A stretch of DNA of 58,532 bases from Perkinsus olseni (GCA_013115125.1 JABANN010000165.1:1-58532); one strand, 5' to 3'. Positions 6,577 through 57,000 are shown, numbered from the stretch's first letter. The notes: a model not told the origin generated them from the sequence alone. A program made the numbers and translations.

Positions 6577-9030
6577 CTACGGACGTTCTCTTCCGCGACT
6601 TCTTCTTGCCTTCTTTTCCTGCACGGGCATTTCATTAGGCAGACCGGACGCAGGAGGAGGGCTTGCTTTCCACACAGTAAACCAATCGACGTCCTTGGCG
6701 GGCGGCAAAGGCATTGACGTGCCCTGAGAGAGAAGAAAACGAGTTCCAGCACGATACATTGTCACTTGGGGATTCTGTTGGGATTGTTTCACTTTCAGTA
6801 CTCTACTCACAACGTACCCACTTCTGAAAAGATTTCGCTCAGTTTTCTCGACCAGCACGCTCATCATGAGCAACCTCAAGATACTCGGGTTCTCGAAAAA
6901 TGTCGAACCATGTCAAATGCAAGTAAAAAGATACTAGACTAGAATTATCGGCACCGAAACTCACCGGGCGCGTGCTCTGATGCCCTCCAGGTATCCGATT
7001 GAGCGAGAACATGACGTGAAGAAGAGCTGGATAGACATCTACAACGTATTGGTATATTTTATAGAAGGGAAATATAATACTTGCTGCGAACCAATCTGAG
7101 AAAAAATCATAACGGCCATTCGAAAGGTCCTCGGTTCGATCCCCGGCGAGGGCTTCTTACTCCATTGCCGACGGACATCTCGTCGGTTTCGTAACGTGAT
7201 TGCCATGAGGGCCACCGAGATACCATGAAAGACTACAAAGTATATGCCAAAATATACACCAATAAGGGCCGGCTGACGAACGAATATTGACACCAGCAGA
7301 AATGGTCTGAAGGGAACCGTGCTCAACGCTCATCCCCGAAGTCCCTGGTTCTATTCCCCCACCTTAATATCATCACAATAGTCGGCACGACGTCAGCAAC
7401 GAAGGACCAAATACGGCCGACCAAGGCTTCTCGAGAACAGCAGCCTTTCGCTCGGATTGTCGGGACAAACGCAACCACGAACATCCGCAGCCGAAGATAC
7501 CATCGACCGCACTCCGAAGAAAAATGGCTACTCCCCGTATCAGTGCGGATCTGAGGAAGGACTACTCGCGTGAAAGCTCAGCAAGGCCGACCCGCGCACC
7601 TGGCTGCCGCCCATTGAGGTTTCGAAGTCATGCCTCAGATACTGCTCCATCATTAACGACGGCTGTAGGAACCCAGGGGAGTCCGTATCCTGACACCTAT
7701 GCATCGTCACGCGCCGCGAAATTATCTCAACTCACGTTAACTCCCACGAAGCCACCTAGGGTCTTATGAAGGGCAGCCCTATCCCACAGCGACACCGCCT
7801 TCCGAGGAGTTACAACGCATGACCCTCCCAGCTTCTCTTGCGCGAAGGACATTCTGAGAATCGATCAACCGGGCGTGCGCTTTGTACGCCAACCTTCGAA
7901 GCCCACGTACATAGCCCTTTGCTTGACCATGTAGTCATGCAGTGTGACTGAAGGCATGCTGTTGACGCCGCGCACTGTGGGTATGTACCACACCACCTTC
8001 GTGCCGTGCCGCCGATAGTCCTACGGCAATACAAACTGCTCATCACTAGCATGAATCATCATGCGTTAACAGGAGGCCAGGAAATTCGAAATTTCTGGCG
8101 GAATTCCGCGAAATTCTGTGAAATTTTGTGATTTTTTTTTCACAGTTCTTATCGGAGCTATTGAAGTGTTCTATGGACCAATCTTCGCTCCACTGTACTA
8201 AAATGATTCATCACTATCCGGAGTTAGAATAATATGTTCCTCTAATAAGTACCTCTGTTTCGAACTATTGCTTTTTGAATTGTTGAAGAGTTTTTATCAT
8301 TGTTTACGGAATGACCTAACCGCCTGACTCGACAGGATGAGCTCACTAACCTGCGTGTTGAGGTCCAAAGCCACAGGCAACATGAAATCATCGTTGGAAT
8401 CAGCGTCAGTGATAAGCATCGCATACCGGAATCTGGAGTAGGGTACGAGGGGTACATAATCGATCACGTGATCGATTGTTACGCAGAGTTCCGGTTCTCT
8501 TGCGGATTGGCCCATCGCAGGACCGACGGAATCCAAGATTTGTTTGCCCAGTAGATCGCCATGGCTTTGTTGTCCTCGGGAAGATACGCATAGTTCACAT
8601 CCGGAGAAACGGAGTCCTGAAGCGTTGAGAAATTGCAAGATGGGATAAGGTCGCAAGATGCTCACTTGAATCATCTTGCAGCAATCATCTGCTGGTGCTA
8701 AATCTTTCCCGACTTCAACCACAAAAATGGGACTACAGCCATGGACTTTAGGGGGAAGTAATGTAGTGCATCTGCACGCATGCACAAAAGATACCGACGC
8801 ACAGCGAAGAATCTCGATATCTTCTGACCTTCGGAGTATCTTTCTCACTCGCCCACGTTTAACTGGGTCAGTACAACAACCGCTGCGCAGCGCCACGATA
8901 ACACAAACGTCGGTGACGGCCTCCTCATTTTGATCGACCTCATCACCAATCACGCCGGTCACAGCGTTGCCACTTTCAGACACACTGCGTCCTCCCCGAC
9001 CTTTCTTTGACGCCGGTAGTGGCGGCCACC
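6577..9030 (-). CDS. GT2-family membrane glycosyltransferase-like protein, paralog 1 (catalytic and C-terminal TM region; N-terminal exons probably extend to about 13 kb)
   Basis: Exon motifs PIFVVEVGKDLAPADDCCKMIQ, VSPDVNYAYLPEDNKAMAIYWANKSWIP, FRYAMLITDAD, KVVWYIP, AVSLWDRAAL, RPFLLVSIFVRQP...LRNRRDVR and PPAKDVDWFTVW are collinear with paralogs 2 and 3. The family assignment rests on my recall of protist/fungal GT2 motifs. Confidence 0.65.
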
Positions 9031-12000
9031 TGAGAGAGAACTGCGTGAAGGAAATGCAAGAGAGCAAGATCCCCCTTACCTGGAGCTGAGTATTGCTGGC
9101 AAGAAAGCTAGAATAGTGAGAATAAGACCGTCGAGAAGGACGAGCCAGTCTACAACCGCAACTGCTGGCACTGACTCTGAAACGACAAAAGAGTGGTACG
9201 TGCGATATGCTTGGGGTGATTACACTAAGGCGCGGGTTCGACTCCCACACCTGTCATTTCAGTCGTGGGCGGTCTAAAAATAGATTTTTTGCCTGCACTA
9301 GGGGAGCTGCACACACAAGTCCCAAGTTGAAAGCTTCCTCCATCTCGACCTCATCCGTATCTTCCTAGGTCAACCTCGAAGATATGCTTCTTACCTCCCT
9401 CAGCTCCATTGCGTATATAATCGAAGAGGTCCAGCTTTCCAGAGTTCTGATAGATTTGATTAGGGAAAACTCCAACGACCAGAAGGCAGCACAGAAATAG
9501 TAGGAGCCACGCTCTAAGAAAAACGCCATTAAAACGACATTCCTGCGGATCGAACCAGAGACCTTGCGGAGGACGACGCAGCGCTCCCCCATCTCACAAA
9601 ATAAGTGTTAGTGCCCAAAAGTATACGCCTCGTCGAAGGGCCGTTTTCGCTCGATATTGAACCTCCAGCAGGGCTACGGACACTCTCGCGCGCCACTCTT
9701 TACTTTGGAAGCGAGCAAAAGGGTGAATTGGGGTACCTGAAAGTTTCCTCAAAATACATAGCGAAACGACGCAAGCAAACGACGTTTTCCAGCCTCCATA
9801 CCGCGAGTTGAAGAAAGGAAAAAAACTTCACAGAATTATGAGCTCTGTGCTACGCTCCGCCTATGTTTATGCGTGCATATCCAACGCCCAAGCTCCCTTC
9901 GGCCTTGTTTTTCTACTAACAATTGATACAACACTCGTACCCTACCGCCATCCAATGCAAAAAATCAAAATTCTCAACCCTACATTTCGAAAAAAACCAA
10001 GAAAAATTGAAGTAAAAGCATCCCTCCCCTTACCGCGCTCGTCCACAGTCTTCACCAGTCCCCCCGCCAGGTCCTGCAGATTGCCATGCTCAAACGCCAT
10101 GTGAACGTTACTCCGCAGTCCAGAAGGAGAGTCCACGTCCACCGAGAACACCGACTGCGGTGATTTCACAGAATCCGTGTCGCTATGCTGTTCTTCGGCC
10201 TACGGGGGAGGACAAAGTTACGCGTTGAGGAAATGCAAGATTGCAAGATTTCACTCACTTGTTTTTCCATCAGACGCCTGTGCTCTCGATTTGCCTGCTC
10301 TGTCCAACTGGCCTGCACTCGCCGACGATACGCCGCTTGTATCTAGCAAAAAAAATTCGCGCGCCACGAAAATATTTCCAGAAAGAATCCAAAATTCCTG
10401 ATCTTACCCCCGGCAATTTCCGTTCCATCACTTTCCGATCCACTTCACCCAGGCGGGCTTTTTTCCGACGATTTACCTAAAAGGCGAAAAATTCCGAAAT
10501 AAACGTCCTAATGTTCTCGACTTACGTAGAACCGAATCTCTCCAATTGCCACGAAGAGGACCCAACATGCACAAATAATCAGCAGGGCGTTGGCGATGAT
10601 CACCTGAAAGTCACGCGCCACAAAATTATATGGCTGAAGGGTCACACGCCACAAAATTATACGGCTGAAAAGTCACGCGCCACGAAATTATACCCGTCGG
10701 AAAAATTCCGAATCCAGGGACAATGGCTAAAGGCGCTTTCCAACGGCATGAAGCCAGCAAATTAGTACCAAAAATCGAACAACTCCCAGAGCGCACTCGC
10801 CTTTGATTCTCACCTTTCCGGGAGGGATGTCGCCGTTGGTAGTGCAAAAAGGCTCAACACTCATCCCAGCACCGGACACAAGATTTTGTTGCAAATCCAG
10901 GGCAAGGAGATACTGGCAAGAGCCACCAAAGGGCAATATCGCCTCATTGAATCTGGAAGGAGTGGTATTAATAATCTGCACGCACTCTTGTTGAACCCAC
11001 CCTCCCTCCGTCCAGAGAATAGCGTCCGAAGGACAACTACTCCCTCCCGAGAGTTGGACAGAGAAGTCGCAAGGGAGAGTCGCGAGGCAATTGACCTTAT
11101 TCCTGCCTTCCTGAGTACCTGACGGTAAAAATGACATCACCAGGGATCGATCCCACGACCATCCGCTCCAAATAATGCAGTGAAACCACTATATGCTTAA
11201 CAACGCGAAATACAGTTCGTTCAGATCATTGCACTGGATAGCGCTAAATTCAAACTCTCAGTAGTGAAGGCGAAAATCTCGCCGCCAAATTAACTTTTCA
11301 TACTGCATTCCGAAATAATTTGGAGCGCTGTAGAAGGACTGAGAATCGAACCTCCGCCCTCACCCTTCGCAGACCAGCACACTACCATTAGACTAACTTA
11401 CACCCTAATTGCCCATCACGATTCGCCACGCTGGCTGTGTACGGGCCATAAATCCTCGACCAATCTTGCTGCTGTTGAATCTCACTCGCGTAAGATACCC
11501 TCACCCTACAGTACAGTCCGTCAATATTCTCGCTGGCAGCGAAGGGCACCGCCTAAAACAGAAAATCATTTCACCAGAAAAATTCTGCAAAATACTTTCG
11601 GGGAGAATCGGAACCCTCGGCATCATTTCAATCGTCACTCGCCACGAAATTCCGGACAGTTGAGCAACTGTTGCAGCAAAATTGCCTTTGGATGAAACGG
11701 CCATAACACGAAGTAAACCAGGGATAGAACCTCCGCCTTCCGCTACCGAATCCATGATAGATAACGACTAAGCTAATACAGACCTGCTAAAGCCCGAGCT
11801 CTGTAATACTCGCAGTAGTTCGACGCCAAGCTGGAAACATGGCGGGAAACAATCAACAGCTCCTGAGCAAGCCTCGCTCTCCAGTGCCCCATCAACCTAC
11901 CGGGAAGGGGCAGTTGAGCGCCGTCACCCAGCTGAGGGAGCCGACCATGATAGTAACGGCGACGCCAACCGCTAAAATCAAGGCAACAATGGCTCCTATG

Positions 12001-14258
12001 ACCCGGAGAAGCTCCGGTATGGGAGAGAGGAAGGGCGGCGGGGTCCGAGCCAAAAGATACCTGACAAGAATCAACCTCAAGATATGCTCTCGCCGTTGCA
12101 CTCAGGCTTTCCGAGTCAATGGTCGACCTCTCACGTTCAGCCAAAAACACGCCTCCGGTAAATCCTCGAGTGGGCGAGTGAAAATCCAATTTTCATTCTA
12201 CGTTCCACGTAATTGACTACGGTCTCCCACATCCATACAAAAGACCCAAAGATACTGCTTTTTCCGCCGCAGAAACGTGAAATTTTATAATAATTTTTGG
12301 CTAATTTTCGGTAATTTACGCATTCAAAAAAATCACGAAAAATTCTTTCCACTTCACCCCTTGCCTTACTGTCGCTCCTGCTTAAGAACCGCTCCGAAGC
12401 TCCTATCCGATACAACAGGAGCCGTCGCTGCGACCCCGCCCAACCGGCGCCCCCCTGCCGCGGCTTCCGCATCCCCCACCACGCTTCCCTCTGCGTCCGA
12501 GTTGAAATCCGAATCACCTGCCAGTAATAACCGTCCAGAAAACGTCACGCGCCACGAAATTACCTCCATCCGATCTGAAAGTATCTGCTCTATACCTCGG
12601 CACTCCAACCTCACCATCCTGCCCAACTGGCCGGGGGCTTTGATACTCCCCCGGCGCAAAAAATGACTCATCCGAGCTCCCGTTACCTAATTCAACCAAC
12701 CATTGTTTGAATCAGTAGCCAGTGCTCTCTACTGCTCTTAGACTTGTTCTTTTTTTGCGGATTTTTCCGCAAATTTTTGCAAATTTTCCGATTTCCTAGA
12801 ACGTCGCTGATGAAAAGCGGCTATCTCATTAACAACCATCACCCCACTACTACCCGCGTCCAGAGCAGCCTTCGCCGCGCCCCCTCCTTCCACTTCCTCG
12901 ACCAGCTCCTCCCGTACACCCCCGGCTCCCTCTTCCGGTAGATCCCCCTCCCCCTGCTGCCCCTCCACGCCCGTGCTGGGCGTGACCGGCGGGGGCGGCG
13001 GAAGCTGCGACCTGGACTCCCCTCCGGTCTGGGACCAACTGAAGCAAGAGCATCTCCGATCCACAATACACCAAGACACCTGCGCCCACGTTCGGGAAAA
13101 TTTTCGAGCCCACATTTACCGAAAAAACGATTATGGAAAATTTTCTCGTATACTTCGAAACTCGATTTCATTTCAACTCCTTCCTCGCACTTTTCCCTCC
13201 ACCGGTCAACCACCGGTAATCAAAAAAACACAAGAAACAATTTCTCTAAAACTCGCGATTTTTCGACTACGAACGGCTACGCGTCCTCGAACGACGGATC
13301 AGCCCGGAACCCAAACCCCCTGCTGCCCTTTACCACCTTCTGGGGCTGCTCCCCGACACTCCCGGCCGGCCCCTCCTAGGCGTGCTCGGATGAAGTGGCG
13401 GTCGACTTCTAGGGCTCCTCTGGGCTACTGTGGGAGGCAACCCTGAAAGCAGAGAGGTGGACGCTTCCTGTTACATGGCGTGTTGAAGAAGCGTAGACTA
13501 ATGGCCAGCAGGAATGGGCTGAGCGTGCCTAGTTGCAGCTGCCATAGCGAGGTGCCCGGGTCCACGTGTCCCTGGATACCACCTTCCTACACTGCCATCC
13601 TTCGGGCGTGGTGAACGCTCAACTAGAATCAAAGCTTGTCAGTCTTCGAGTTCGCTGCAGTGAAGCCGCGGATATCCGGACGAGTTGCGAAAATTGTGGT
13701 ACGCAACTTCAACCCTCCCCCCCCCTCGCCCAGCACTACTTGGATCCACCACTGGCGAGTGATCCGTGGGCGTGTGAACTATCCGTCGGTGGGCTCCAGT
13801 GTGATGAGGCCCTAGTATATACCCATCCGGAAGCTCCGACCTCTGTCCTCCTGACGACCCAGGTTCCATTCTATGCTGATACAAATAATAAACCCTGCGA
13901 ATCTTACGTTAACCCGTATCCAACCAAAGTGAAGCAAAGATTCTTGTGAAATCGTCGACCTTTTGTCGTTGTTTGAAACGCAGGAAATACGAGAATAATA
14001 ACAACGGGGAGAATTATAACGTACAAAGATGCTGCAACAGAGTATCTTCGCCTTCACTGAGTGCCATGCGCACAGCGAAGATTTTCCTTCCTTCATCATC
14101 AATCTACTCCAAACCTATTCAGCCATCACCCTTCACCAGGATAACGGCGTCACTGTACAATATTCCGTGCAAGGATTTCATACCAAAACTTCCGCATAAA
14201 ATCCGTACCACTACCAACTAAACAACATAACCCTTCCCCCTTCCATCGCCACTGGAAT

Positions 14259-17200
14259 CTACTTCCCCGAACGCCCCAGCAAGGACTTCTCCGCGGCCGT
14301 CCACACGACTTCGCAGCTCCTATGGACGTCCCCAATCTTCCCGCTCCGACCCTTTTTATCGCCAACATCGTCATCACAAACCCACACCGAAAACCAATCG
14401 ACCGTCGCACTGCCTGGTAGCGGTGGCACTCCTGCTCCGCAAGGCTGAGAAATAGGAGGAAGATGCGTTGAGGAAATGCAAGATTGCAAGACTTCTACCT
14501 GCTTTTCTCTTTGCTTCACGGAAGGGCACGCTGAGCATATCTTAAACATAGAGTGGAATAAACTCGTATAAAGATATCCAATCCCATACGCCAACTTATA
14601 CAACGGTACTGCGAATAGAAGTAACGTCCTGATGTAAAAAGCGCTCGCCCGCCTGATCGATTTCCAAGCTCAGTACATCTTCCAATGCCGCTTAATCTCC
14701 GGTCTTCTCCGGAGCGACAAGCAGGTCTCGATCACAGACAGGACGTTGAGAATGAGGTAATAAATCTGCCGAAAAAGCGGAAAAATTTGTCTCAGAAATG
14801 ATTCGGACATAATTTTTTCACGCGCCGCAAAAAAAATCAAGAAAATTGTTTTTTCATCCATCCGTGAAAGACACTACAAAACAGGCTTGTTTCCAGCATT
14901 TTTTCTGTTTTTTTCGGGAAAAGGGAAGAATTTCCGAAAAAATCCTCCAACTCATGATTATTACCCCGAGTAATATTGGTATGTCGATAGGCGCACGCAG
15001 GAGCAACGTACCCAAATAAAACGGCCTGAAAAAGCAAGAAAAATCAGAAAAAATGCGGGAAAATTCTGGAAAATTCGCAAACCTACCGGACAACGACAAA
15101 GAAGGCAGGAACGAGGTAGTAGAGGGCGATGCTGAGCTTTGCCGCCCATCTGAGAGAAGCGGATGGAGTGGTACGCACATGATTAATTCCGCGTACCTGG
15201 GCCAAGTAGAAACAAAGGGGTTGATGAACTCCCAGACAAGCGTGCAAAGGAGCCGCCAATCTTTGCAGTGCGACCCGAACTGATCATGATTCGTTACTCG
15301 AACCTGAGCTCAAAAAGATCCTTCCCTTGGCTCAACCGAACACCACTTGCCGCCTCACAACGACCGGCCGTCCAGACTCGAGGACCCACCAGAGCGTTAT
15401 CATCGCACACAGAAAAGGAAGAAGAATCGACCCATACAGCAATCCATCGGGGGGGACTGGAATTTCACACAATGTCATTCATCGTGTAAAGTCAGCGCGC
15501 AACTGCGTACGCGTCCGTCATATAGCTAATATGCCTGTCTGCTGTCTGCCCTCGGCCGCGATAGCTCTTCTTCCCTCTCATGTTGAGTTCCCATCCGGAT
15601 CACGCTGAGGCGCTCCCGCATCGCCTACTCATGCTCCCTATCATTATCGCTCATAATCCAACAGTAACACACGAAGATTCTTTCTGCTTCCAATCGGCGG
15701 CAGGAGGTTACCCCGGAGTTCCTCTTTTTCGCGGCCAAAGCAAAAGTGATTACGTTATTCCCCAACTCTCAACTCTAGATCCTCATTTCTAGCGGAGCGA
15801 AGTTTTTTCCTATCCCCCTTCCTATGACCTGAGGAGCCGCAGTAGCCGTGGACGCTCCCTTCATGCGCATCTGCGTGATGGACATCCTTTGAGTTAACTC
15901 GCTGCTGGTCATGCATGCCTGATAAAGATACTCTTGAAGAAGAAGGCGGGTAACACTACAGAGCCTTCAACTTGTCTTTGCTACGGTTCGACCTAAGATT
16001 CCCCGATCCAGTTCAACAGTCTCGACGATACCCCTCTAATCAGCCCCATTGTCATTCCTGGCGACTAAATGATATTCACTAGTCTAACGGAAAATTTTCC
16101 CCGAAATTTCCGCAGGATACGCGAAATTTTCGGGAAAAAATCTTATTTTCCGCCGGGAAATCCCCTCACCCCATCCGTCCCGCTGAGCTTCTCCATGGTC
16201 TCGAAGAGAGCCTTTCGGTCCCACAGGCACACTGACTTCTGCGGCACCACTACTGCGCTCCTCCCCAGCTTCTGCTGCGTTAAAGACACGCTGAAAGAAC
16301 AAACGAAAACTACGAAAATTGCAGAAAAAATCGAGGCACACCCAAACAAAGTCGCAAAACCAAAATCCTGAAGAAATTTGGTACGCACGCATGCGCATTT
16401 CTAAGGCTCCAGCTGTTCCAATATCGATCAACCGATCGATTCTATGCATATCTTCCTCTGCACCCGACCTTATTACATTGCATCGGCCTTTAAAAGGTAA
16501 TCGTCCACCCAGACAGACTGTCCCTGTCCCTGGATGGTCGGCCGAACGGTAGATGGGAACCACACGACGTTATTCCCGCTGCTTGATATAGACTGAGGAG
16601 ACGGGAAAAACAGGGAATTTCCCGGAAAATTCCGAAATATTCCGAAGAGAATAAAGGAGATATTTTATACGAAAACACTACATGTCAAAACTTGGCGATA
16701 ATTGGGAATCTCGCAATCTTGAAAGATCTCGCGATTCCTCAACGATCTCACCTTGGTATCAAGCTCCATAGAAGTAGGCAGTAACAAGTCGTCAACGCCA
16801 TCCACGTCGTCGATCACCAGGGCGTAGCGAAACCTGCAGGGAATCTTTCGGCCCGCATCTCTTCATCTCGACTTACGATGGAACCTTCACGCCTCCAGAA
16901 GATACGTTGTACCGTCGGACTTGCGAGGATATCCAATACTTGTTTGCCCAGTGGATGGCTATCGTCTTGTCGTCTTCCGGCAAGTAAGCATAGTTAATAT
17001 CGGGAGATACTGTGTCCTGCAATCCGGAGGGCGCAGGTTCGATCCTCGGTGGGTCTATTTCATGCAGTAACTCTCAATCAATGATTCAGTCAATCAGAAT
17101 ATCTCCGTATGCGATAATCGATCATGTGATCGATTTCATTAGCGATACTCACCTGAAGCATCTTCCAACAGTCATCGGCCGGCATCAGTCCCGGACCGTG

Positions 17201-17720
17201 ATCAACAACAAAAACCCGAGAAAATCCGGGTGCATTACAGGGGAAAAGATTCTCGCATCTGAGAAATGCGCACAGCGAAGATTAACAAAAGATATCCCCA
17301 GCGCACAGCAAAGATTCTCCTCACCTGCGGACGAGCTTGGCGATTCGCTTCCCCTTGGTAAAATCGGCACAACTGCCGCTTCTAATTGCGATTATTGCGC
17401 AGACGTCAGGGTCCACGCTGGAGACCTGTCTCGGGACTGAAAAGATACCGCAACTTGAAATCTTGCGTTTCCTCAACGTCCCAGAAATCCCTTCCGCATG
17501 ACACCCAGAAAATCCCCTGTGTATTCCTGTAAATTTTCAGTCCATCTCTGAAAAATTCCCGCGAATCCCCTTCCCGGGTAAAAAATTTCCGGAAAAATTT
17601 ACCAGGAAAATAATTTTTCCCGTATCTCACATTTTTCGATCGGACTGAACTCGTGTGCTCGCCGGGAGATCTCCGCTGAGCTCATCCGCTCTGGCTTCAC
17701 GTCAGCCACCCGAGGCCACC
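14259..17720 (-). CDS. GT2-family membrane glycosyltransferase-like protein, paralog 2 (N-terminal exons may extend to an ATG at 22260)
   Basis: Exon motifs SRVFVVDHGPGLMPADDCWKMLQ, VSPDINYAYLPEDDKTIAIHWANKYWIS, FRYALVIDDVDG, VVWFPSTV, SVCLWDRKALFE and PLPGSATVDWFSVW. Confidence 0.65.
15026..15086 (-). promoter_or_regulatory. Intron composed almost entirely of 10-bp phased A/T tracts (PATC-like; representative example)
   Basis: A-tracts at 15029-33, 15039-43, 15048-53, 15060-63, 15070-73 and 15079-81, between a GTAGG donor and a TTTTCAG acceptor on the minus strand. Confidence 0.6.
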
Positions 17721-19912
17721 TGAAACAAAAAATACTTGACGGAAAAATGGCCTGGGCGCAAGAAAAGTAAATTACCGTACGAAGGATTCGAACCGACGAC
17801 CTTTAGATTCCAAGCCAGCACCCCCTACCATGTGGCTCTCAGAGCTGCCGGAATTCCCATCACTATCAGCACGGCGATGTCCGCCAGAACGAGCAAGTCT
17901 GTGAAGACCCACGGAGAAGTCCCCGCCTGTTGGATACCCCGAGCGGCATCTAGTATACCTAAAATCTTGCAATCTTGCTCTTTCTTATGTTTTCTCAACT
18001 TACTCCACCAGGACGATTCGAATAGTTGCCGGGGAGATACCACGAAAACGAAAAGGCACGCCAGAATGTGGACAACGAGGAAACTGAAAAAAGACAGATA
18101 TCGTGACCGCGCGCCACAAAAATATGACAAAATCTTCGCTGTGCGCGAAGATATGCCCACCTTCATTACAAAATAGCGCGCAGTATCGTCTTTAGCACTC
18201 CCCTGATGAGCGCAACTTTACGCCGCTTCCGGATACCAACCTGCCACAAAAAATAGGAAAAAATACAGAAAATCCATATTTTGCGGGAAAAAAATCCTGA
18301 AAATTTTGCTACTGAAAAAAGGAAGATGTACGCAAAGAAGTTTCGACCGATTGCAATTTCGCGCGCCACGAAATTCGATCCCTCACCCGCATGCTCTTCA
18401 CTTGAACGCTCCACCCAGCAGCACGCTCTCGACATAGCGGGTTCATCGCACCTGTAAAAGATGCGTTCCTGCGCACAGCAAAGATTCCTCCAACCTCCCC
18501 TACCGATTCCGAACCTTGACGCCGAGTGCGCCCGAGCGAACATCGCTGTTGGACTGGGGTCGTGGCTCAGGATACTCCTACGAGTTACGCAAGGAGTGGT
18601 ACGGAGTTTCTGGGTGAATCCAAAACTCACCCGTGCTCAAAATACTTATGGACGTTCGACCTCAGCCCCGACGGAGAATCTTGATCGGCCGAAAATCCTC
18701 GAGCTCCCGGGGACAAACTTCCTTCCTGAAAAAAATCGGAAAAGTTTCCGGAAAATCAGAAAATTACGAAACCTGTCAGTCTTACCAGTCTCTCCCCTTC
18801 ACTATCCGTTTGACGTTGCGCTTCAACCATATACCTACACCAATTACACTTGGAATCTTGCAATCTTGCGCTTCCTTGCAATTACCTAACGCCCTCGGCC
18901 TCCCAGCGAGCTTCAACCCTTCTTCGCATCTCTCGTCTAACGTCATGCATGTGACTGGCTATAACCGAGCAATCCACCGCACGCTCATGCCGCTGGTAAA
19001 TTTCGCACCACTGAAGGACAGGAAAAATCTTCGCCGTGCGTAAAGATACTCTCCCCAGCTCACCCAAAGATATACCTCTCGCGTGGCTACCAGGAGGACG
19101 AGGATAATGCCAGCAATGATGAATCCTTGAATTACAACAATATGACCAGGAGAAACCTGAAGGGAAAAATTCGGAAAATTTTCGGATAATTTTCCAGAAG
19201 CGAAAAAAAAAGAATCAGAAATTTGCCATACTCATAAAATTTCCGGAAAATCGTCAATCATTTCCCGCGGTAAAGTTTAGAGGAAAAATCATCAATTTCC
19301 CACGCCGAGAAATTTTACAAACTCAGGAAATTTCTCTGAGGAAAATTTGTAAACCCGGCAGAAAAAAGGATACAAAATTCACGGCAAAAATGGCAGAGCA
19401 AAAAATTCCGAAACAAACTTCGCTCCGCTAAGAATGTTTTTTACATTTCCGTCAGCAGAGCAGACCGGCTCCAAACCAATAACCGCGTTATTGACAGTAA
19501 CTTTATGCTCCTCATCCATTGTCAACCGGAGAGGCGATGAATTGGAAAAATACGGCGGGAATCTAAAAAAAATAATTTCGCGCGCCACGAAATTACGTAT
19601 CTTTCGACCTCATATCTGACCAGGATACCCGAGAACTGTCGGCGATGGTGACGCTCGGGTCCACCACATGCGAGCATGGCAGGGCGGAGATGCAGGTCCA
19701 GCAGTGGGCACCCGCACAATCACCGGAAAATTCATCTGTCGTGAAAAAACCTGAAAAAGTAAGGGAAATTTCCGGGAAAAATTGATCCTGGATTCGACCG
19801 CGGGGCGGGGAAACTTGAAAAGGAATAAATAAGATAAGAAGTGAGAAGATACCCAGCAACGCATGCCATTCGATTTAGCGTCACGCGCTACGAAATTGCC
19901 CTCAATCTGACA

Positions 19913-20023
19913 GGAAAATTCACCGTCACGCGCCGCGAAACTATCCTCCATTACGAAATTCACCGTCACGCGCCGCGAAACTACCCTCCATTAAGAAATT
20001 CACCGTCACGCGCCACAAAATTA
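19913..20023. repeat. 40-bp tandem repeat (about 2.7 copies), each unit carrying the GTCACGCGCC(A/G)C(G/A)AAA motif
   Basis: Unit GAAATTCACCGTCACGCGCCGCGAAACTATCCTCCATTAC, with the motif starting near 19925, 19965 and 20005. Confidence 0.9.
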
Positions 20024-20400
20024 CTCACCGCAAACAGCTCCAGTGTCAAGACTGTAATCAGTAATTTCTTTCATTTCCGTTTGGCTGACGGCCTGGGTCG
20101 GGTCGAATTGGAACCAGAGGCGACATCGGCTGCCCTCGATAGTGTCATGCGTACCCGTCACATCCCAGGCTGCGAACACCTAAAAATTTCGGGAAAAAAC
20201 TTGAAAATTTTCCCCAATTTCCGCCGAAAATATCTGTGTCTCATGAAAGTGATGAAATTTTGCCGGAATCTTCACTGTTATCGGTTCAGTGGTGATCACG
20301 GAAAAAAAGAGAAAGTAAAAAATTAGAGGAAGAGAAAAGGCGAAAAAAGGATATCTTTCGACCGTCACGGCCCAGGTTGTGAGCAGTGCTCACTGAGCAC

Positions 20401-20503
20401 CTGCAGAAAATTCGTGAAAAAATTCCAAAAAAATTGCGAGAAATCAGACAAAAATGACAAAAAATAGGAAAATTCCCAAAAAATGATAGAAAAGGCAGAA
20501 AAA
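20401..20503. promoter_or_regulatory. Run of ten A-tracts phased at about 10 bp (PATC-like)
   Basis: A-tracts start at 20407, 20417, 20427, 20441, 20450, 20459, 20469, 20478, 20490 and 20499. Confidence 0.6.
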
Positions 20504-22404
20504 TATCTTTCGACCGTTTATTGAGTACTTGCCCACCTTAGAATAGCCCGGCACTTCACCGTAGGTGTGAGCCGCTCTGATGCACGTAAGCTCACTGAAC
20601 CATTCAGTTGACTGGGTGAAGACAGTTGCACTAATAATGATAGATATAACCTGGCATACAACCCGACCTATTTCGTATCTTGCAAGCTCAACCTCATTGA
20701 TACCACTTACAATCCAGATAATGGTGAACAGTATTCGACAGCAATACCCACAAGGATTCACCAATCTCTTGGGCAACGTACTGCGGAAATACCTGATGAT
20801 GAAAAAGCTGAGCCGACTTATTTCGTATCTTACACGCTCAACCTAAGATACCCGAGCGGCTCTCCAATTCGTTGCTCAACTCCAACAGCCAATGCTTATA
20901 ACCCTGCTGGTGCGCCAAAACACTACTACCGAGCCAAAAGTCCACTCAAACGATTATACCCGGGTAAAAACGTTCCCCACTTTCTCTCATAGGTCATCAT
21001 TTCCTCCATAGGCGACATGCCCGTCCGCGGAGTCCTCGCGCTCGTCGTGGCAGCCGAAACCATCAAGACATCGGTATCGAGAAGAATATCTCTATCCGAC
21101 GCTATTTCCGCTGACGGACTAACACCACCGGCTGACAGAACGGGGCGATGCAAAAAGCGCTCGCCATAGTGATCGATTCACCAACTCACCATCGGATCCG
21201 AAGGAATCTGCTCGGCGGCGAAATTTAGGAGAGGACCGGCGTACTCGCGCTGACAGTAGAAAAAGTGAGAAAAAAGACATAAATTTTCACGGGAAAAATA
21301 AAGTTGCAAATATATTCTCACCCGGCGATACTTCCGCTGCCGCTAACGTAAAAAAGTCGGAGAAATAGGAAAAAATTAACAAATTCAGACGGTGAATAAG
21401 CGGAAATTTCCGGATGAGGATGGGCACTCAGAGCCTATACGATAATATCGAAAACTACTTACCACCGTTGAAAAAACGTACAAGACGAGAAAAAAACGAA
21501 AAAAACGTCTCATCCTGAATCTCTCGAAAAAAATATTTTCGGAATTAAACTGGTAAAATTATTCGGTAAATTTTACCGATTGAGAAATTTGCAGAACGAG
21601 GCGGCTGCACGGTTAGCACGATGCAAAACGTTCTCCCCTAGGAATCGAACCCGGGTCGTCCGTCAAACAAACTAACGCTCTCCCTACTCGGCCGTGATTC
21701 CCCTATCTCAATCTCTTGCGGCGGTTCCGGCGGCGGAGATATCGAACCATCCTCCTGGATAACATCAAACTGTTCCGGAGGCGGGGACGGTGGAGAAGGA
21801 GCCACCGGGGACGGGGCTTTCCGCGGCGAGGCGGTTCGTCTGAGAAAATGCAAGTGGAGCAAGATTGGTAAGGCCCATAGCACGACCACAAACCCCGTCA
21901 GAAAAATCTTAATTTTCCCGAAAATACAGAAATTTTCTTATGATTTTTCCCCTCACCTCGGGCTGTCCGTTGCTAATTTTGGCGTTCCCGGATGGAGGGG
22001 CGGCCGCCGAGGGCCGACGGACGGACTCGGAGCGCGCGGTGGCTGACTGCGTGGCGCTGAAGGAGCAATAAAATATCTTTCTACGTACGTTCGCCACGCT
22101 TCGACCTAAGATACCTACTTCTCTGTGCAGGGGAGTTTGCCGTCCGCATGTGAACGCTCTGACGGCCCCTCGACGAGGATTCCCTCACGCCCGATCCGCT
22201 CCGACGGTGCGATGAGCTACCACCACCAGCAGCAGCAGACGGCGTGGACTTGTAGGCCATGGAAGAAGAAGAACAACAACAATAACGCAGTAGTGCCACT
22301 ACTGACCCGAAAGTGTCAAACAAAAAACGCTTCGCTCCGCTAACACAATCTCCCTGATCGAAACCTTCCGTGGTTCGGACGACATTACTGTAACTACTCA
22401 AAAA

Positions 22405-22639
22405 CCGCATCGCTCCGCCTACATTACCAATACAAACGAATAACAATACCGCTCCGCTCCGCCTACATTACCAATACAAACGAATAACAGTACCGCTTCG
22501 CTCCGCCTACATTACCAATACAAACGAATAACAATACCGCTTCGCTCCGCCTGCATTACCAATACAAACGAATAACAATACCGCTTCGCTCCGCCTACAT
22601 TACCAATACAAACGAATAACAATACCGCTTCGCTCCGCC
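22405..22639. repeat. 44-bp minisatellite (about 5.3 copies) containing the CTTCGCTCCGC motif
   Basis: Unit CGCTCCGCCTACATTACCAATACAAACGAATAACAATACCGCTT at 22411, 22455, 22499, 22543, 22587 and 22631 (partial). Confidence 0.95.
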
Positions 22640-23099
22640 CTCCCATTGAACCCACACTATAACCAAATTCCGTCCTTCTGATAAGCCGCTTGATTAATGA
22701 CTCCGTTACGGCTTTCCCGATTCCCTCAGGAGACCCCGGAAAATGCGTTTTTACACAGAAGTCCGCGGAATGGTAAATTCAGCAAAGAATCTTACAATAA
22801 CAATCTCAGCCTGCCCAACCAAAAGGTACGCTTCCGCACAGCGAAGGTTTTCCTCTTATTCTTCGGAGCCTTGGCGATCAGGGTGATGGTGATGATGATC
22901 TCCGGTACCCTGCGGGCCCGCGCCCTTCCATACCTGCATCACCAACATAATAATTTCGTGGCGCGCGGTCAGAAATCCCAACAGAAATTTGCACAGACAT
23001 CCATACATAATTTTTCCACGAAACTACAAAAACCGTAAATTACCTCGAAAAATTTTCGGCAGGCCCGAAGAGGTCCCCGGTTCGAACCCCAAGGCCGAC

Positions 23100-46615: not shown

Positions 46616-49600
46616 GGGGCCTCACACTCCGGCACTCCATCGATTGACGGCAGTTGACACTGTAATTCGTCACCTTCATACGTCCAAGAAGCTGTCTCAT
46701 GAATGGTAAGTGGTAACTCACCACTGGTGAGCAATCGAACTCACAAGTCGAGGTCACCTGGGCCTGGAGTTTTGTGCGTGCTTTTGCACGAACGTCACGC
46801 TACGAGTTGAGATCTAATCTCACTTATGGTGGTCTGAAGTCCACAATCTCACGGGGACATGAAGCCACCCTGACACGCGGGATCGACAGCAGTTAGATAC
46901 TGGCCACTATGCTGCTTCAATCGCTCCGCCGTTCTCACGTCGTGGTGTCCTAATTTTTTGCATATTGGCCCGACTCGTTGAGCCTCACTTTTGCTGCCTG
47001 TCTAAGTGCAAGCTGTATGATGCGACTTTACCGTACCGTGGCCGCAGTGACACTGACAGGGTGGCAATTCACAATGTGAAGCTACATGCGTCATTTGCGC
47101 CCACGTTCCGCTACGAGTTAGAATCTTGTGTCATCTATACGACGACGTAATCTCATGACTACGCATCAAGATCGACTGGTCTCCGATCACCACAGCGTTG
47201 AAGAGGTGCGTACGTAGTGAAGAATGGGGTTAAGACTTTACCGTTGAGTTTTTGGAAGCTATCCAATGCATTTGGATGCTCTTTTATCGTGTTGCGAAAC
47301 GCTATTGTGATATTTTTGAGGCGAAAGAAAATAATTTTTTCATCCATTTAATGCGCCCTGGTAAATGATGATGAATTTCGTCATCACTTCGCGGCGGAAG
47401 CGTTTCTTCCGCGGCTAACTTGGCGCGGCTAACTTGCTGTACATCTCGAAGTGATCTAATATCGGGAATCCCGATTCGGGATATGTGCCATTTTTGCTTC
47501 GTGAAGAGCTCACTTAGCACGGGCCCTCACGGGAATCACGAATCTGTCATTACGTGTGTCCACTACGTCTTCTGAAGTTTCTATTCCCACCTGCCTCGTT
47601 ATCATTCCCTCTGTCTCCCCTTTCAGGTTGTAATCTGCACGATACCGGTGAGCGTCGTGGCCGGCGCCCCTAGGTCCTCCGCGTCTCTTCATTCCACATT
47701 TTATACAGTCAAATTTAGCGGCGAAGTTGCCGCTCCCGGCTTCATCGAATTCGGTCAGGCCGAACTTCTTCCGACTGTCAAACTTGCGGAGTGAGTTGGC
47801 GTGGGGGCTTCGATTTTTTTTCTCGGACTCTCTGTTCTTTCGAACCACGCACATATCGCCTTAAGAATTCGGCGTGCTCGATTCAGTAGTTCATTCAAGT
47901 CGCGGACGAAAACAACGATGTTTGTAGGACTGTATTCGTTAGTACTGGTCCACTAGAGGTGATACTATCACCGTGATAGCTTTCCTCTAAAATACAGCGC
48001 TGCGGTACTCCCGGTCGCCTGATGTTATCCGCCGTTTTGGCCCGGTAGAATGTGATATCATTCCGCTGTGTATGCCTTCAACCAGCTTTTATTTTCAGTT
48101 GCTTATCACCGGCCATTCAGTGTGCCTTCCCAATAGTGGAGGAGAGAACTACGCGGTTTCTGGGCATCCTCGGCTTGAATAAAGGGAAAAGGTGACTCAC
48201 ACCATCACCCAACTGCAGCACCCTCGTCAGCTCGAAGTGGCATAGTTTATTCTCCTCTTTTTTCAGGGAACCGTCCCTCACTTTCCTCAGTATGTGTCAA
48301 TCATTTTCAATTCCACCAATGCTGAACGTTGACGGTGTAATGTACCCCACCGAGCGCTCCGAGACGGGTCTCATTCAAATGCGTAAGAAATCAAGATTTC
48401 GCGCGCCACGAAATTAAGTAACTCAAACTCGGTCGAAAACTGAATAATTATTCATGATTTCGTTGACTGGGTCCCATGTAGAAGAACTTTCCAAGGTTAT
48501 TTTTGCATCTTGCATAAGTACCAAAACTTCGCCGAATCGCACGCGCTTGGTCGTTGCTCAGTACCTCCGTGGGACGATCCCCGCCAGGCCAGCGTCTCTG
48601 TTTTCCGGGTTTCGTCCAAGGAAGCGATGTTTTGTGGCGCAGTACGGAGTTGCCGGAAATTTTCCCCGCTCCTGGGTGAGCTGCTATTGGAATTTCGTGG
48701 CGCAGTGACGATCATGTCAGGTCGGCTCCCGTCCGGGTTTATACCTATCGAGCCCCAGCGTATAACACTGTGGGCATTTATCGGTTCTAGAATGTCTTCC
48801 ACCGCCAAAAATGTTGGCTCGGCTGTCCCGACGCCGTCGCCGGTCCCCCCGGTTGAATCAACTGATAGCGGACCTCGAGAGAGTCTCGCGGTAAGCGACG
48901 CATTAGAAACCGTTTCTTGATCTATTTTGGTAATTATTAGTAATAGCAATTTCAATCCTCGGCCAGGTGTCGGTGAGAGCCGCCGCATCGATCGCTCCGG
49001 TCACAGGCGAGATAGAAATCTACGAGATTGGTGGTGGGGACGAGGTTTCCTCCCAGATGGCAGCCAATGAAGTGACGAGTTGTCGATGGTGCGGTACGAT
49101 GACAATGTTTTTCAGGCAACTACTGTGCTCTTGTCGGGGGTCCGATATCGTTTAGAGTGATGATGACAATGATAATAATAATAATAATAATAATGATTAA
49201 CATTAATTAACAGTAGAATAGTGGATTTAGGAAAGCGCGATTTGTCCAGGTTTATTATTACACCTATCGACTCTAGCGTTTAGACCTCGACTTTTGTACA
49301 CCACTGAAGGCGATGACGACGACCAGAATCGTCAGGATTCATTTCAATACTTTACAATATCATTAATATTATTAGTAATATATTGAACAAGAAGAAGGCG
49401 ATTATTAGTAATAGATTGTTGTATTTGCGTCGCGCGCCGCAAAATGCCACGTATGTTGCCCGCACAGCTGCCGATAATAATTAGGCTGAATCTCATCATT
49501 CATCACTGTGGTTACTCTGGCCTCCTCCTCCTACTCTTACTCGTCGGTAATGTTACTTCGTATTTCATCATCGGTATTATGTGTCGATGATGATGATGAT

Positions 49601-51030: not shown

Positions 51031-51196
51031 TGGACGAGCTGCCCCCGGTTGGGACGAATGTGACGGTCCAAGTCCGGGCGCGAGTAAGCTGCCGTTGGTA
51101 ACCTTATGTATGCATCTCCAACCCCTGCACAGCGTTCCTAGTCGTATCATGCCTCCACCGTTGTGATTGCTAATTATGCGCCGATCGTCTTATGGG

Positions 51197-51455: not shown

Positions 51456-53143
51456 TAAGCGTACGTAGCTGATTCCTCTCAAGAGAAGAAGGAGAACTAG
51501 AAGAAAGATTTTACGCTCCTCTACGACTTGCGTCGTCTGTGAGGATCAACAGAGAAACAACAGTCCCACACCGATCGTCCCGGGTTCGATCCCCGGTGGT
51601 ACCCACTTCTCTCCACCGTATAATTATCAATATCGTTGAAGAAGGTCGCATCATTTCGAGATGCACTCCCAGAACCTGACCGGCAAACGGCCTCCTCGAA
51701 AAGTAATGCAGCGCTACTGGAAACGGAGATGGAAAACTATCGATCATCGAAATTGAAACCGTTATTTATGATACTGATCCAATTCTTGGAATTGATCGAG
51801 GAATGGGGTAGTGGACAGTTTCTACCGTCAAAGGCATCGCCCCGGTCCCTGGGCAGACCAACAGCAGCACCATCGTCGTACTCGATGGTCGGAGCATTCG
51901 GTGCTATGGTCCGAGGGCCTTACAACAGAGCATCGCTCAACGAGGAGACAGTCGGCGTAGACCAGTACCCGCCATCGACCCCTCAGTGGACTTCACGTAG
52001 CCGCCAGGACTGGGGACGGCCTCAACAGCCGGACCAGGAGTGGGTATCAGGCTGTAGAGGAATTGCAAGATTGCAAGATTGCAAGATGTGCTGCAGTCCC
52101 TACTGATGGCCAGGAGACACTGTCGAGCTTCTCTGGACCAGAAGCCCTCCAGGCGGCGCCGGGCACCTGCTGCTCACAGCTTGCGGACATATCTGCTGCA
52201 CCGGATCGAGAGGGCGGGAGAGATGAGCACGGTTACTCGTTCTTTGATTCTCGCAGCGATCTCGTCAACGACGTTTTCGTTGTCCAGCAGCAGCCGCGTG
52301 AAGGCGTCTTTCACGGCTACGGCGATCTCCGACCGTTCTTCTGCGACGACGCCCTATCAGCTCGCCGGGAAGGGTGCTCTCACCTCGATCCGCGGCAGAT
52401 CGTCTCGAGGAGTGTCGGGAGGAGCTGCCCTGAGGACGACCACATCTCACGCTAAGGGCTGATGAGGGAGGCGGGAGGGCACAGCCGTCACAGAAGGTCT
52501 TCTCACACGAGCAGACACCAACGGAGTTTGCTCGTCAGCGTGTGGGTTGGATTCCGAAGGTCGAGGAGGGACGGCTGCTGCTGCCGCCTCCGAGCCCTGG
52601 ACGGCGTCTCCTTCGGGATTACACGGCGTGCGGTGATCATCTACTGAGAGAGTATCTTAAATTTTGCGTTGAGCAAGCGTGACCTGCACCTTGCCGGACT
52701 TCTGGCCCGTCTGCCCGCTGCAACGCCAAGGCCTTCCTGTAGCTCTCGGCAATCTGAAACAGGGCCCTAAAAATCTACTGCCATAGAAATCGTCACGCGC
52801 CACGAAATTCTACACCGAAGATAGACAATAAAATAGCAGTGCTTTGCTTGGCCGTATGGAGCCAATTCAAAAGCATAGAGACAGTGCTCCGGTAATTTGG
52901 TACAAATTCATTATAGAGAATCGCCCTTCGAGTGCCCTTTACTGCTCGCTATGCGGGCGTTGAGACAGCGTGACGTCGTGCGTAGTAGGGAGAGTAGAGA
53001 GAAGAGGTTGGCGGCCCGCATTTGCAACAAGTCAGCGCGCCGTCACTCTTCACTCGGCCTTTGAACCCTCTGTGCAGCGTTCCAAAGTCGAAACCTTCTT
53101 GTGATTCAGAGACATCTCTCCTACTGTGACGATCGCCCTGTGC

Positions 53144-54039: not shown

Positions 54040-57000
54040 TGCAGAGTTGTTTCTCAAGCGAGGGGCAGAAGCCTCCGATCACTGCCACTGCGATTTGAAG
54101 CTACGAAGCTCGTGATGAGCCCGAGTCCCCCCTCCGAGAGACGCTCCCCACCGTCTGTGGTTTCAATTTGTCTTCAATCCTTTTGCTCAGCCTCGCTCGA
54201 ACCCCGTTGTCCATGACTACTGCCTTTGGCGTGCCGTACCTGCCATCGCCCTACTCGCCCTCAGCCCGATCAGCCCACCCCTACAGAGTAGCAGCGTCAA
54301 TGCTCGGCAACAGCTCGTTATGCACAAGTTTATTAACGTCGATCCCTCGATCTCTCTCCCAGATATCCTTCGGCTCCGGAGAGAGTACAACTTCTAGCTT
54401 CTCAGGAGGGACTGCTGAGCGTAGTAGAAGAGCATCCGACGGGCACCTCACCGCAGCCTTCGGGATCTCGCTCGAACTGCTCAGGAGTCGGTCGCGTGTC
54501 ACTGAGGGGTGCCGCTGGTTGCAGAGGCACCTACAAACGGAAGCGCGGCTAAGAGAGAGAAGGGCATCTCTTTTCCACTGGCACATCGCCAAAAATTCAC
54601 TGAAAATTCATTTTCCGCTTTCTCCGGATCTTTCCTGATGCGTTAAAGTACACCCACTTTAGGATGTCATAGGTGAGAAAAATATCGGAAAATCAAGATA
54701 ACGGCGGAGCGAAGTTTTTATGATACGGTCTCGGTTGAACAGTAGCAATTTTTTTTGCGAAAAAAATGACTGACACCAAATTCTGGCAGCTGTTTTTCCT
54801 GCATTCTTTCGAGGGTGTAAGGCTTGGCCGGGCCTATGATATCTGGGAAAAATTCCGGAGGTGGCATGGTGACGGGAGAGATCTCGATCTGAAAATTGGA
54901 ATAACAAAATTTCGGAAAATTGCAGAGCTGACCATCTTCTGAGGAGGGATAGGGGGGAGGTCTTCCTCGGCATTCACTGGGGGAGGGGGGTCCGGACGAA
55001 CCTGTCGAGGGACGCAAAGCGATAAGGTGATCGATTTGAGAATGCTACCACGCAGCCGGCGAGAGGCTCCTCTTCGAATTTGATAGGAATGTCCATCGAG
55101 GAAACCCCTGATGATGGACCGAGAAGCGAGCAGGCAAAACGCCGTGACGAGGAATCGAACCCGCGACCTCACCATCGCCTTGGCCAGCAATGACCTCATC
55201 GAGACCGTCAACGGGAGGTTCGTAGTCAACGGACAAAGCGACCGGAGGTAGCACCACATCGGAAGGATCTACTAATAATACCAAATCGAGCACGTGATCG
55301 ATTCGTGATTACTCACCTATACCATCTTTTCGCTCTTTTTTATCAATTTCCATCAGATCCGGCGGCTCCCCACACAGCACCTTCAGGAAGCACAGGCGGA
55401 TGGACCCCATACCAGGGCACCGGGTCGGGGAGGGCAAAACCCAACTACTGCGGCAGCAGCAGCAGCAGCAGCAGCAGCCTAGTGATTCAGCTCGTCACGG
55501 ACGATTCAACCACAGAGAAGTCCCGTTTTTACTGTTATTCTGAAAAAACTTCAAAATGTTTTACGGTATTATTTTTCATGATCATAATTTATGTTCTTCA
55601 GTATAAGAGATTGAAAATAGGTGATAATGTTTATTGCAACTTCGAGTCGGATATCTTCTTATTACTAGCTGGTCGAACTCCTCCGAGTGTCGCTTGACCA
55701 GCTGCTGCTCCTCCGCCGTCAACTCGTTCATCTCCTCCACTACGTCCCACGCCCTCTCCGCCATCTCCGGCTCAACCACGCCTGAACTTATACCATCCCA
55801 CGAGTGAAAGTAACCACAGAAGCTTGAGATGAACAAAGGGCTCAGTGCTGTTACTCCTGTTACGCACGCCAAAAATCTCACAAGTAAAAATCTTCCCACC
55901 CCTAGTGCTTTGACGTTGTTCCCTTCATCGTTGTTATATCCCAGATTTGAGTACTGTACTGTGTGAATCAGTACTGCTATGCTCCTATTGGTCGCCAAAT
56001 TGAACTATTCTACCATTGCTACTCTGTGACGGTCTACGCAAGCACAGTTCTCAGATTTCAATTTCGCCCCCCTGTTATGTTGAGCACAGCACCAAGGTAG
56101 TTCAGGACGCCCGCATTTCTGTGCTGCAGCGACCTCTTCTTCACTCGCCAGCAGTTTCCATCGCGCCAGTCCTCAGCACGCGTAAAAACATGCAACACGA
56201 TTTACGGTAGGTGCGGTACTCCGCCGTCAGGAGCAAGATAGATTATTTTTTATCCCCCACTATTATTCGATCGGTGAAAGCATCCACTTTCACCCATCTG
56301 AGATCCCCCAGTGGGCGATGGCCGTCTTCTGAATCGTCACGCGCCACGAAATTGTCCATCTTACTTTCCAAAGTAATATCGTCCTTCAGAGCCTCAGCCA
56401 CGTCGTGTCCGATGGTTTCTGCATAGACTGCGTGAAGTGACTCCTCCAAGATTTTGGCGGGGACGTTGCTGAGGGCGATTCTCAGGTACCCTTATGAGCT
56501 ACGGCTCTACGCAGTATTTTGCCAAGTACCATGGTCAACCTAAGATTCCCTAAGATTCCGAATGTTCCCATATTGAGAGAGTTTCATGCAATCACACTCT
56601 CAATAGGTAGGAGACTGTATGAGTTTTCCGGCGGTGTGCTCGCTACACGCACTCGCCTTGCAAACGAAGAATCCCCTCAACCGCACCCCTTCTCGAAGTC
56701 CGCTTTCTGGCGAAAGATCTTAACAACTCCTTCAGGCGTTCCGGTCTGAAACTTAACCGTAAGTGCTTCGCTCCGCCGGCCTCAACCATTTTGACCACAC
56801 CCTACCTGATCGTCTCCTGAGCTCTTGCCTCGCCTTAGGACTGTCTCATCCATGCTCTTACCCCCACCAACGCCACTACCACTTGGGATCAGGTACCTGA
56901 CGGGCCCAATGTCTCTCGCGTGGGTTTGTGTAGTACCCCTTCTCGCAGAGGTCCTCGTAGGTTGGGCTCTCCTCGACAGCTCTGTCGCCCTCTTCAGCAA

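Follow-up and report, generated by a model that had tools for sequence, protein, structure and literature searches.

We analysed a 58,532-nucleotide (nt) stretch of the genome of the clam parasite Perkinsus olseni (GCA_013115125.1 JABANN010000165.1:1-58532), referred to here as the window, in which an 18-base word recurs 35 times. All 27 copies that fall within three tandem genes of the minus strand, g1, g2 and g3, are intronic and touch no exon, and the word is a real intronic element that is probably under selection. By the tests available, it is neither a transposon relic nor an introner. We consider the chances about even that it represents a selected site in double-stranded DNA for a putative Perkinsus nuclear protein with sequence-specific binding, and that the site was distributed by a copying process and increased in number locally through slippage. 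In support of this reading, the word is non-coding and occurs in both orientations, its edges are sharp, and conservation holds at individual positions. The further proposal, that the putative factor acts on chromatin inside gene bodies, rests on the context of the copies; it is the weakest step of the argument, and we regard it as possible rather than probable. Almost nothing is known about the reading of Perkinsus DNA by regulatory or chromatin proteins, and a conserved word of this kind would provide a handle for finding a factor.

Copies of the word and their host genes

As reference we took the strand (S) on which the word reads AATTTCGTGGCGCGTGAC, the reverse complement of the 18-mer that an earlier reading of the sequence alone (hereafter, the sequence-only reading) had singled out. 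The consensus on S is AATTTYGYGGCGCGYGRM, with about 16 informative bases. Exact matches to the 18-mer number only seven; with up to three mismatches there are 25, and 100 shuffles gave 0.11 on average and never more than 1. An iterated weight matrix with a score of at least 15 recovered 31 copies, compared with none in each of six Markov-simulated windows, and four further copies (24526, 24572, 24618 and 48691) carry one extra A, giving the total of 35. A 36th candidate, at 48630, sits in a predicted exon and was dropped. The sequence-only reading had described about 35 dispersed copies on both strands, and these were recovered, each of its coordinates lying within two bases of a copy; their intronic location had been missed. 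Matches were also obtained in 13 metagenomic and four viral public contigs. Because these were single at each locus, without a second copy and mostly GC-rich, we took them to be due to chance.

The host genes are g3 (6577..13038), g2 (13946..22277) and g1 (22685..29137), all on the minus strand, which are tandem paralogues of approximately 1030-1130 modelled residues with 25-32% identity. By Atlas features, scored at 0.96 for g2, the paralogues resemble family-2 glycosyltransferases (GT2-like). Gene g2 has 33 coding exons, supported by RNA joints and by leader-like letters at 22277 on an RNA contig, which we take to be a trans-spliced leader, and its model matches P. olseni FOZ62_014837 in 757 of 783 columns; one exon of the g1-g3 block matches the latter at 93%. 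The GT2-like membrane protein paralogue g3 is modelled with 25 exons, with a provisional 5′ end and one uncertain internal exon boundary near 11402-11505, and is represented by a spliced RNA contig of 3682 nt. For g1, 30 exons were modelled, again with a provisional 5′ end, and an RNA contig starts from 22685. The host protein had no Pfam match and nothing below E 0.1 in the PDB, and a protein search with a six-frame open reading frame (ORF) spanning introns gave no match.

Our first impression of this region was of a pseudogene or centromere-like block, which we rejected because the RNA contigs show three spliced genes. Contigs of three runs over 7600-27590 behave as spliced RNA, and all 15 of the listed RNA joints (of 122) skip a CT..AC sequence. 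Before hand corrections, model exon length lay within 20 nt of the cover of run X18 in 17 of 30 bins; the bins that departed from this cover comprised gene ends, untranslated regions (UTRs), three places that were corrected later, and bins ascribed to extra contigs or left unexplained. Introns make up approximately 53% of the modelled genes and have a median length of 66 nt (up to 525 nt), compared with 45-53 nt in the calmodulin gene of the same window. Twelve intron positions are exactly common to g2 and g3, and two more agree within one codon. None of the 29 intron positions of g1 is common to g2 or g3, and therefore intron turnover has been high within this gene family.

The 27 copies occupy 17 of the 85 modelled introns, with S as the sense strand in 13 of these and as the antisense strand in four. 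In g3, all copies are (+): a sense copy at 7706..7723 in the 46-nt intron 7690-7735, a sense TTCGCG variant at 10356..10373 in intron 10343-10407, three copies with a period of 31 (array A, 10610..10689) at the 3′ end of intron 10604-10813, a sense copy at 11634..11651 in intron 11553-11900, and an exact copy at 12544..12561 directly after the GT of the 46-nt intron 12518-12563. In g2, the copies are again all (+). Three of its motif introns are confirmed by RNA, namely 14766-14964 with a degenerate copy (14817..14834), 18084-18169 with a copy at 18106..18123, and 18241-18386 with a pseudo-palindromic copy in a 7-7-7 arrangement (18358..18375). The copy at 19577..19594 lies directly after the GT of the 34-nt intron 19563-19596 and forms most of it, and array B (19880..20022; four copies, period 40-45) lies in intron 19751-20028. 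Both orientations are represented in g1. The antisense copies, all (-), are a single copy at 22952..22969 in the last intron (22934-23116), array C (24526..24636; three identical 19-nt copies with the extra A) in intron 24519-24850, array D (25548..25691; three copies, period 63) in intron 25542-25718, and an exact copy at 27505..27522 in intron 27488-27630, whose boundary is less sure, RNA cover being approximately 55 nt above the model. The remaining g1 copies, all (+), are a degenerate copy at 24300..24317 in intron 24243-24380, with a 1-base deletion at 24308 in the diverged run X9, a sense pair 33 apart (26027..26077) in the 68-nt intron 26013-26080, and a sense copy at 26789..26806 in intron 26683-26820.

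Eight copies lie outside g1-g3. Seven are in GT..AG stretches that were either predicted or read by eye, and the eighth (30684..30701, +) is upstream of g1 in an intron or spacer. Three of the seven are in predicted plus-strand introns: a copy at 48398..48415 (+) in an intron from 48383, a sense copy with the extra A at 48691..48709 (-) in the 45-nt intron 48676-48720, and a degenerate antisense copy at 49429..49446 (+). The stretches read by eye are on the minus strand and hold a copy at 35672..35689 (+; 40-nt stretch), a copy at 36429..36446 (+) that follows a GT by five bases and precedes the reading frame of a long interspersed nuclear element (LINE) by 250 bases, and an exact copy at 52792..52809 (+; stretch of 38 or 49 nt). 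A further exact copy, at 56336..56353 (+), occupies a 36-nt minus-strand GT..AG stretch that is in frame and stop-free and was modelled as an exon. No copy was found inside the reading frames of the hAT-like zinc-finger element and the LINE at 33-41 kb.

Could such a distribution mark a centromere, as the sequence-only reading had suggested among other functions? The word is long, orientation-free and clustered, with 27 copies in 20 kb and eight in the remaining 38 kb, as might be expected of a motif that specifies centromeres or loads the kinetochore. However, the copies occupy the introns of spliced genes, each array comprises only three or four units, and a sparser series of copies extends through unrelated genes as far as 56 kb. 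Because the copies within the window are single or in groups of two to four in introns of spliced genes, we found no support for this suggestion and consider it extremely improbable. Among the literature matches listed, there was no study of a Perkinsus centromere.

Origin and multiplication of the copies

We infer that the copies were placed by a copying process, because point mutation could not have produced a word of this length dozens of times over. The carrier in this process would have left no trace. At 25 loci, flank similarity did not exceed that of random intron DNA, the anchored identity being 8.0 and 7.6 of 30 compared with a null of 7.8, so that no shared flank was found, in agreement with the non-aligning flanks noted in the sequence-only reading. 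There was also no target duplication at the motif, the best counts being 9 of 35 for 2-mers (with 48 boundary choices) and at most 2 of 35 for 3- to 8-mers. None of the 17 motif introns contains both orientations of the word, which speaks against a model with terminal inverted repeats, and no conserved bases follow the word, which speaks against a Helitron 3′ end. Short contigs of the diverged run X9 pass from the motif into flanks that differ among themselves (agreement with the consensus 0.46-0.55; six to nine contigs at three edges). The word is therefore present at other places in the genome, where it lacks a common extension. One X9 contig joins 24545 to 12539 and could represent an inverted pair elsewhere. 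The opinion of the sequence-only reading that the word is no transposon relic fits these results: the copies do not extend into a common transposon consensus, and neutral decay is not apparent, as there is no decayed tail and the mismatches are confined to a few positions.

The intron positions provide further information. The motif intron 18084-18169 of g2 occupies exactly the position of the motif-free g3 intron 9514-9597, and two motif introns of g3, one of them 7690-7735, are within one codon of motif-free introns of g2. Therefore, the word was either gained in, or lost from, old introns at these places, and at least one motif intron predates the g2/g3 duplication. Fourteen of the 17 motif introns have no position common to a paralogue.

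Alternatively, the word might not be under selection and might be what is left of a tiny mobile or captured DNA, which was either inserted into introns or gave rise to them. Recent spread, local conversion or uneven mutation rates, rather than binding, would then account for its identity. The copying step is required under any reading, and the tiny introns 19563-19596 (34 nt) and 12518-12563 (46 nt) consist of approximately the motif plus splice sites. The unit of array A resembles a whole mini-intron, the intron turnover implied by g1 is high, and the correlated variants GTCAC, TTCGC, ACCGC and the extra A could be subfamilies. In addition, a preprint reports position-specific, transcription-linked mutation in repeat monomers of Caenorhabditis elegans (bioRxiv 10.64898/2026.08.08.743475). 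Nevertheless, neither a shared flank nor a target duplication was found, no copy has three mismatches, and spacers derived from the same duplications have diverged two to three times more than the motif. The absence of introns with both orientations and the motif introns at, or within one codon of, motif-free paralogous positions also argue against this origin, which we judge unlikely. If the word were only such a pasted seed, it would still bear on the gain of sequence by introns in the Perkinsus lineage.

After the initial copying, local multiplication would have followed, in which slippage or unequal exchange between close copies produced arrays of alternating motifs and spacers. Arrays B, C and D have a motif at each end, so that n motifs enclose n-1 spacers; products of this form are expected from slippage or unequal exchange between two adjacent copies. 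The DNA flanking these arrays mostly resembles the spacers no more than chance would give, with the right-hand flank of B agreeing at 11 of 22 bases. Isolated pairs such as 26027/26060 may be the substrate for slippage. In array A, a 31-nt unit that reads like a 29-nt GT..AG mini-intron plus two bases has simply been triplicated. Tandem units of about 30, 40, 47 and 63 bp had been reported in the sequence-only reading and were found here with periods of 31, 40, 46 and 63. The repeated re-amplification in unrelated units that it described can be explained without a special mechanism, since three of the four arrays are motif-bounded as if by slippage.

Motif-bounded arrays might also be the products of exchange at the word itself, if a recombinase or transposase used the word as its target or core site. 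A 7-7-7 inverted arrangement (AATTTCG, seven bases, CGAAATT) is seen in one variant, with perfect 7-bp arms at 18358 and 19577 and near-perfect arms at 10356 and 48398; the arrays contain one more motif than spacers; and a presumed DIRS-like gag piece, which gave no Pfam match, is present at 34.2-35.3 kb. In most copies, however, the right arm is poor, the tolerated changes are asymmetric between the arms, none of the copies in the window carries an inserted element, and plain slippage explains the arrays. We therefore regard a recombinase site as very unlikely.

Conservation and the weighing of a putative binding site

Nine positions of the word never vary in 26 loci, and the information falls below 0.5 bit at both edges. 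The core had been called nearly invariant; two positions within it, S positions 6 and 8, vary in 5 and 3 of the 26 loci, respectively. The CpG-richness of the core had been taken as a further argument for selection; CpG is not depleted in the window (observed-to-expected ratio 1.08, and 1.36 in introns), and therefore this argument carries no weight. An unweighted search gave 15 copies without a mismatch, 10 with one, 6 with two and none with three. In total there were 22 mismatches, all of them within the same 5 of 14 positions (p = 3e-7; p = 5e-5 when only 17 of them are treated as independent).

The tandem arrays allow sequences of the same age to be compared: 13 of 164 sites differ between adjacent motifs and 30 of 129 between adjacent spacers (p = 4e-4); when the worst motif pair was taken for each spacer pair, the motif count became 11 of 91 (p = 0.052, two-sided). 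In the antisense arrays C and D alone, the corresponding values are 3 of 37 and 20 of 72 (p = 0.024). Divergence thus amounts to 8-12% of sites in the motif and 23% in the spacers, antisense arrays included. In array C, three identical 19-mers are separated by spacers that differ at 8 of 27 sites, and the spacers of array D differ at 12 of 45.

In the proposed retention step, binding would fix the G and T positions of the word, and C and T would be exchanged at YpG steps. The variation observed on S is almost exclusively C/T at YpG (22, against one G/A). Proteins can read guanines along one strand, and arginine-guanine contacts can be made at YpG steps. The observed pattern suits a protein of this type; it also suits a G.U hairpin, although weakly for the main variant, and strand-biased mutation. 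The AATT end of the word presumably resembles the SCB box of yeast. The putative selected, long protein-binding site put forward in the sequence-only reading accords with conservation above that of same-age spacers and with the lack of a decayed tail.

Several points weigh against a binding site. First, the fixed positions were defined on the same copies in which they were scored. Second, the same-age test involves four arrays and non-independent pairs, and its worst case is borderline. Third, a cross-strain comparison was underpowered, with none of 40 listed substitutions in the motif against approximately 1.3 expected (983 rows lie beyond these). Fourth, changes at positions 6, 8, 9 and 13 are found only in the 19 sense copies and in none of the five antisense copies; this favours a mutational share, and the C/T-only variation may in part reflect strand-biased mutation. 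Fifth, 14 of the 17 motif introns are taken from the gene model, three having been confirmed by the listed RNA joints. Sixth, a phase-lock of the motif to the A/T tracts described below was seen with pooled copies and lost significance when a single flank was taken from each intron (p = 0.05-0.8, three periods). Finally, the sense bias of 13:4 (p = 0.049) fits a splicing role or an insertion bias better than a purely DNA-level role, and the same two explanations are favoured by the short distance that separates the AATT end from the splice site it faces (median 14 nt, p = 0.007, in a test chosen post hoc).

These last observations raise the possibility that the word acts in RNA, as an intronic splicing enhancer near the 5′ splice site, with its TGAC end perhaps serving as a branch point, or as a small G.U hairpin in the pre-mRNA. 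The 13 sense introns include all three of less than 50 nt in g1-g3, the AATT end is within 15 nt of the splice site faced in 9 of the 17 motif introns (p = 0.011), and the common C/T variants all lie opposite G in a possible sense-strand stem. However, the two best-conserved arrays, C and D, are antisense, and folding of the commonest variant is marginal (0 to -3.6 kcal/mol), so that the hairpin was rejected as the conserved unit. Moreover, the word is missing from 68 of the 85 introns and from all five calmodulin introns, and its companion words also occur outside introns. A splicing element is, in our estimation, quite unlikely.

Companion features, known systems and the rest of the window

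Five other words of 14-21 nt recur in the window; one is a palindrome, three occur in either orientation, and some copies lie in UTRs and spacers. At least one recurrent word is present in 50 of the 85 introns of g1-g3. The second word, TTGTGCATGCGTGCA, is exact in six of its seven copies (2584, 4735, 8773, 50528, 53176, 53502 and 53991); it ends intron 8772-8828 and holds the TGCAT AP2 core given in PMC3734150. The third, AATCTTCGCTGTGCGC, has 10 copies (8797-28042), which include the 3′ UTRs of both g2 and g1 and the paralogous introns 17259-17324 of g2 and 8772-8828 of g3. There are eight copies of GAGGAAATGCAAGATTGCAAG (4922-18857 and 52057) and 12 of CGCTTCGCTCCGC (15791-28370 and 56764), six of the latter in a 44-bp array at 22404-22639; the palindrome AATCGATCACGTGATCGATT is found at four places (8458, 17116, 55017 and 55284).

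Tails of tRNA with a B-box-like sequence lie in 18 of the 85 introns, in both orientations (7126-28772), and also at 55168. In the 14 relics with full 5′ context, the box is kept and the outer T-stem pairs at 11 of 42 positions, against a shuffle mean of 14.7; this therefore indicates the DNA rather than the RNA level. The window gave no Rfam match at the gathering score and contains no tRNA gene. Furthermore, the 41 introns of at least 80 nt in g1-g3 (7600..29038) carry A/T tracts phased at 10 bp, with a score of 1.37 by our own measure, which is not the published algorithm for periodic An/Tn clusters (PATCs), against 1.01 +/- 0.05 in shuffles (0 of 300 reached it) and 0.85 in exons. This phasing is not evident in 1-6500 or 41000-58532, and it is possibly a more surprising feature than the word itself.

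The B-box relics and A/T phasing in the motif introns hint at a chromatin role of the word, and they are also the one hint towards the hypothetical insulator or condensin-loading roles named in the sequence-only reading. In the corresponding step of our proposal, the putative factor would set nucleosomes, or hold off silencing, in a block of long-intron genes beside transposons, acting together with the B-box sites and the phased A/T tracts. Perkinsus is described, in PMC5029490, as the closest well-sampled dinoflagellate relative to have kept ordinary nucleosomes; the literature matches listed included no chromatin data for Perkinsus. A broader speculation, which we consider unlikely, is that Perkinsus has evolved an intron-encoded chromatin code in genes of repeat-rich blocks, made up of at least five orientation-free words, lone B boxes and PATC-like tracts, in which dedicated factors would keep genes open, convergent with the arms of nematode chromosomes, and in which the 18-mer would be the commonest word here. 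If words, B boxes and A/T phasing did act together, they would constitute a second independent case of anti-silencing introns, so far known mainly from nematodes.

How does the word compare with known systems? In its proposed function, the word is closest to the extra-TFIIIC sites of C. elegans, which PMC6950938 describes as repeat-borne protein-binding words enriched in introns and clustered in repeat-rich domains; interspersed intronic words and B-box relics are likewise present here. However, the 18-mer is neither an A nor a B box, has no tRNA-like carrier and is known from sequence alone. A second likeness is to the PATCs of Caenorhabditis (PMC4947018; bioRxiv 10.64898/2026.08.08.743475), which most non-nematode genomes lack at comparable frequencies according to PMC4947018; Perkinsus is not mentioned in the main text of the preprint. 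The likeness concerns the host introns, which are long and carry 10-bp phased A/T tracts, and not the word, as PATCs are a distributed feature, whereas the word is discrete and not significantly in phase with the tracts. No Helitron minisatellite was found either, although no genome-wide search for one was made. The word therefore belongs to neither system.

The introners of Amoebophrya, as described in PMC7789003, contain repeated words of 8-20 nt near intron ends. They resemble our case in these short words, in belonging to a related lineage and in high intron turnover, but they have inverted repeats at both intron ends and family-wide similarity there, neither of which is seen here (0 of 17 introns, flanks at random level). 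The E2F/DP-like sites of Cryptosporidium (PMC3734150) have a [C/G]GCGC[G/C] core with T- and A-rich bases directly beside it, and motif 3 of C. parvum is DTTGSCGCCH; the word contains such a core with a one-sided T run, but three additional bases separate this T run from the core, and the word is longer and intronic rather than upstream. AP2 domains have been reported for P. marinus (PMC4117751), and none of the AP2 sites considered matched the 18-mer. The word is not described in the literature that we found, which was mostly outside subscription journals and searched in main texts; among the listed papers matching its core 10-mer, none concerned Perkinsus or a relative by title or start of abstract.

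The remainder of the window contains further genes and mobile elements. A calmodulin gene (1014-1710, +), with the five introns of 45-53 nt noted above, is followed by a gene at 4400-6010 (-) that we take to be GST-like, and an ankyrin-repeat exon lies at 50037-50266 (-). The transposon-rich segment includes a hAT-like zf-BED ORF (33106-34209), the presumed DIRS-like gag piece with a 15-bp repeat (34199-35266), and a broken LINE with endonuclease, reverse transcriptase and RNase H (36696-40784). Beside the zf-BED ORF, a 69-bp tandem unit and its flank occur twice, at 31683-31950 and 32900-33060, approximately 1.2 kb apart. An ORF of 689 residues (44552-46621, -) has an internal duplicated segment and no Pfam match; it is intronless, which is unusual for an intron-rich genome. 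Finally, the stretches 3060-3310 and 51200-51460, 48 kb apart, are similar by eye and share TTTCGTTTCGTAACTCGTCCC and CACGATATTCCAAATTTATT; they probably represent a small dispersed repeat.

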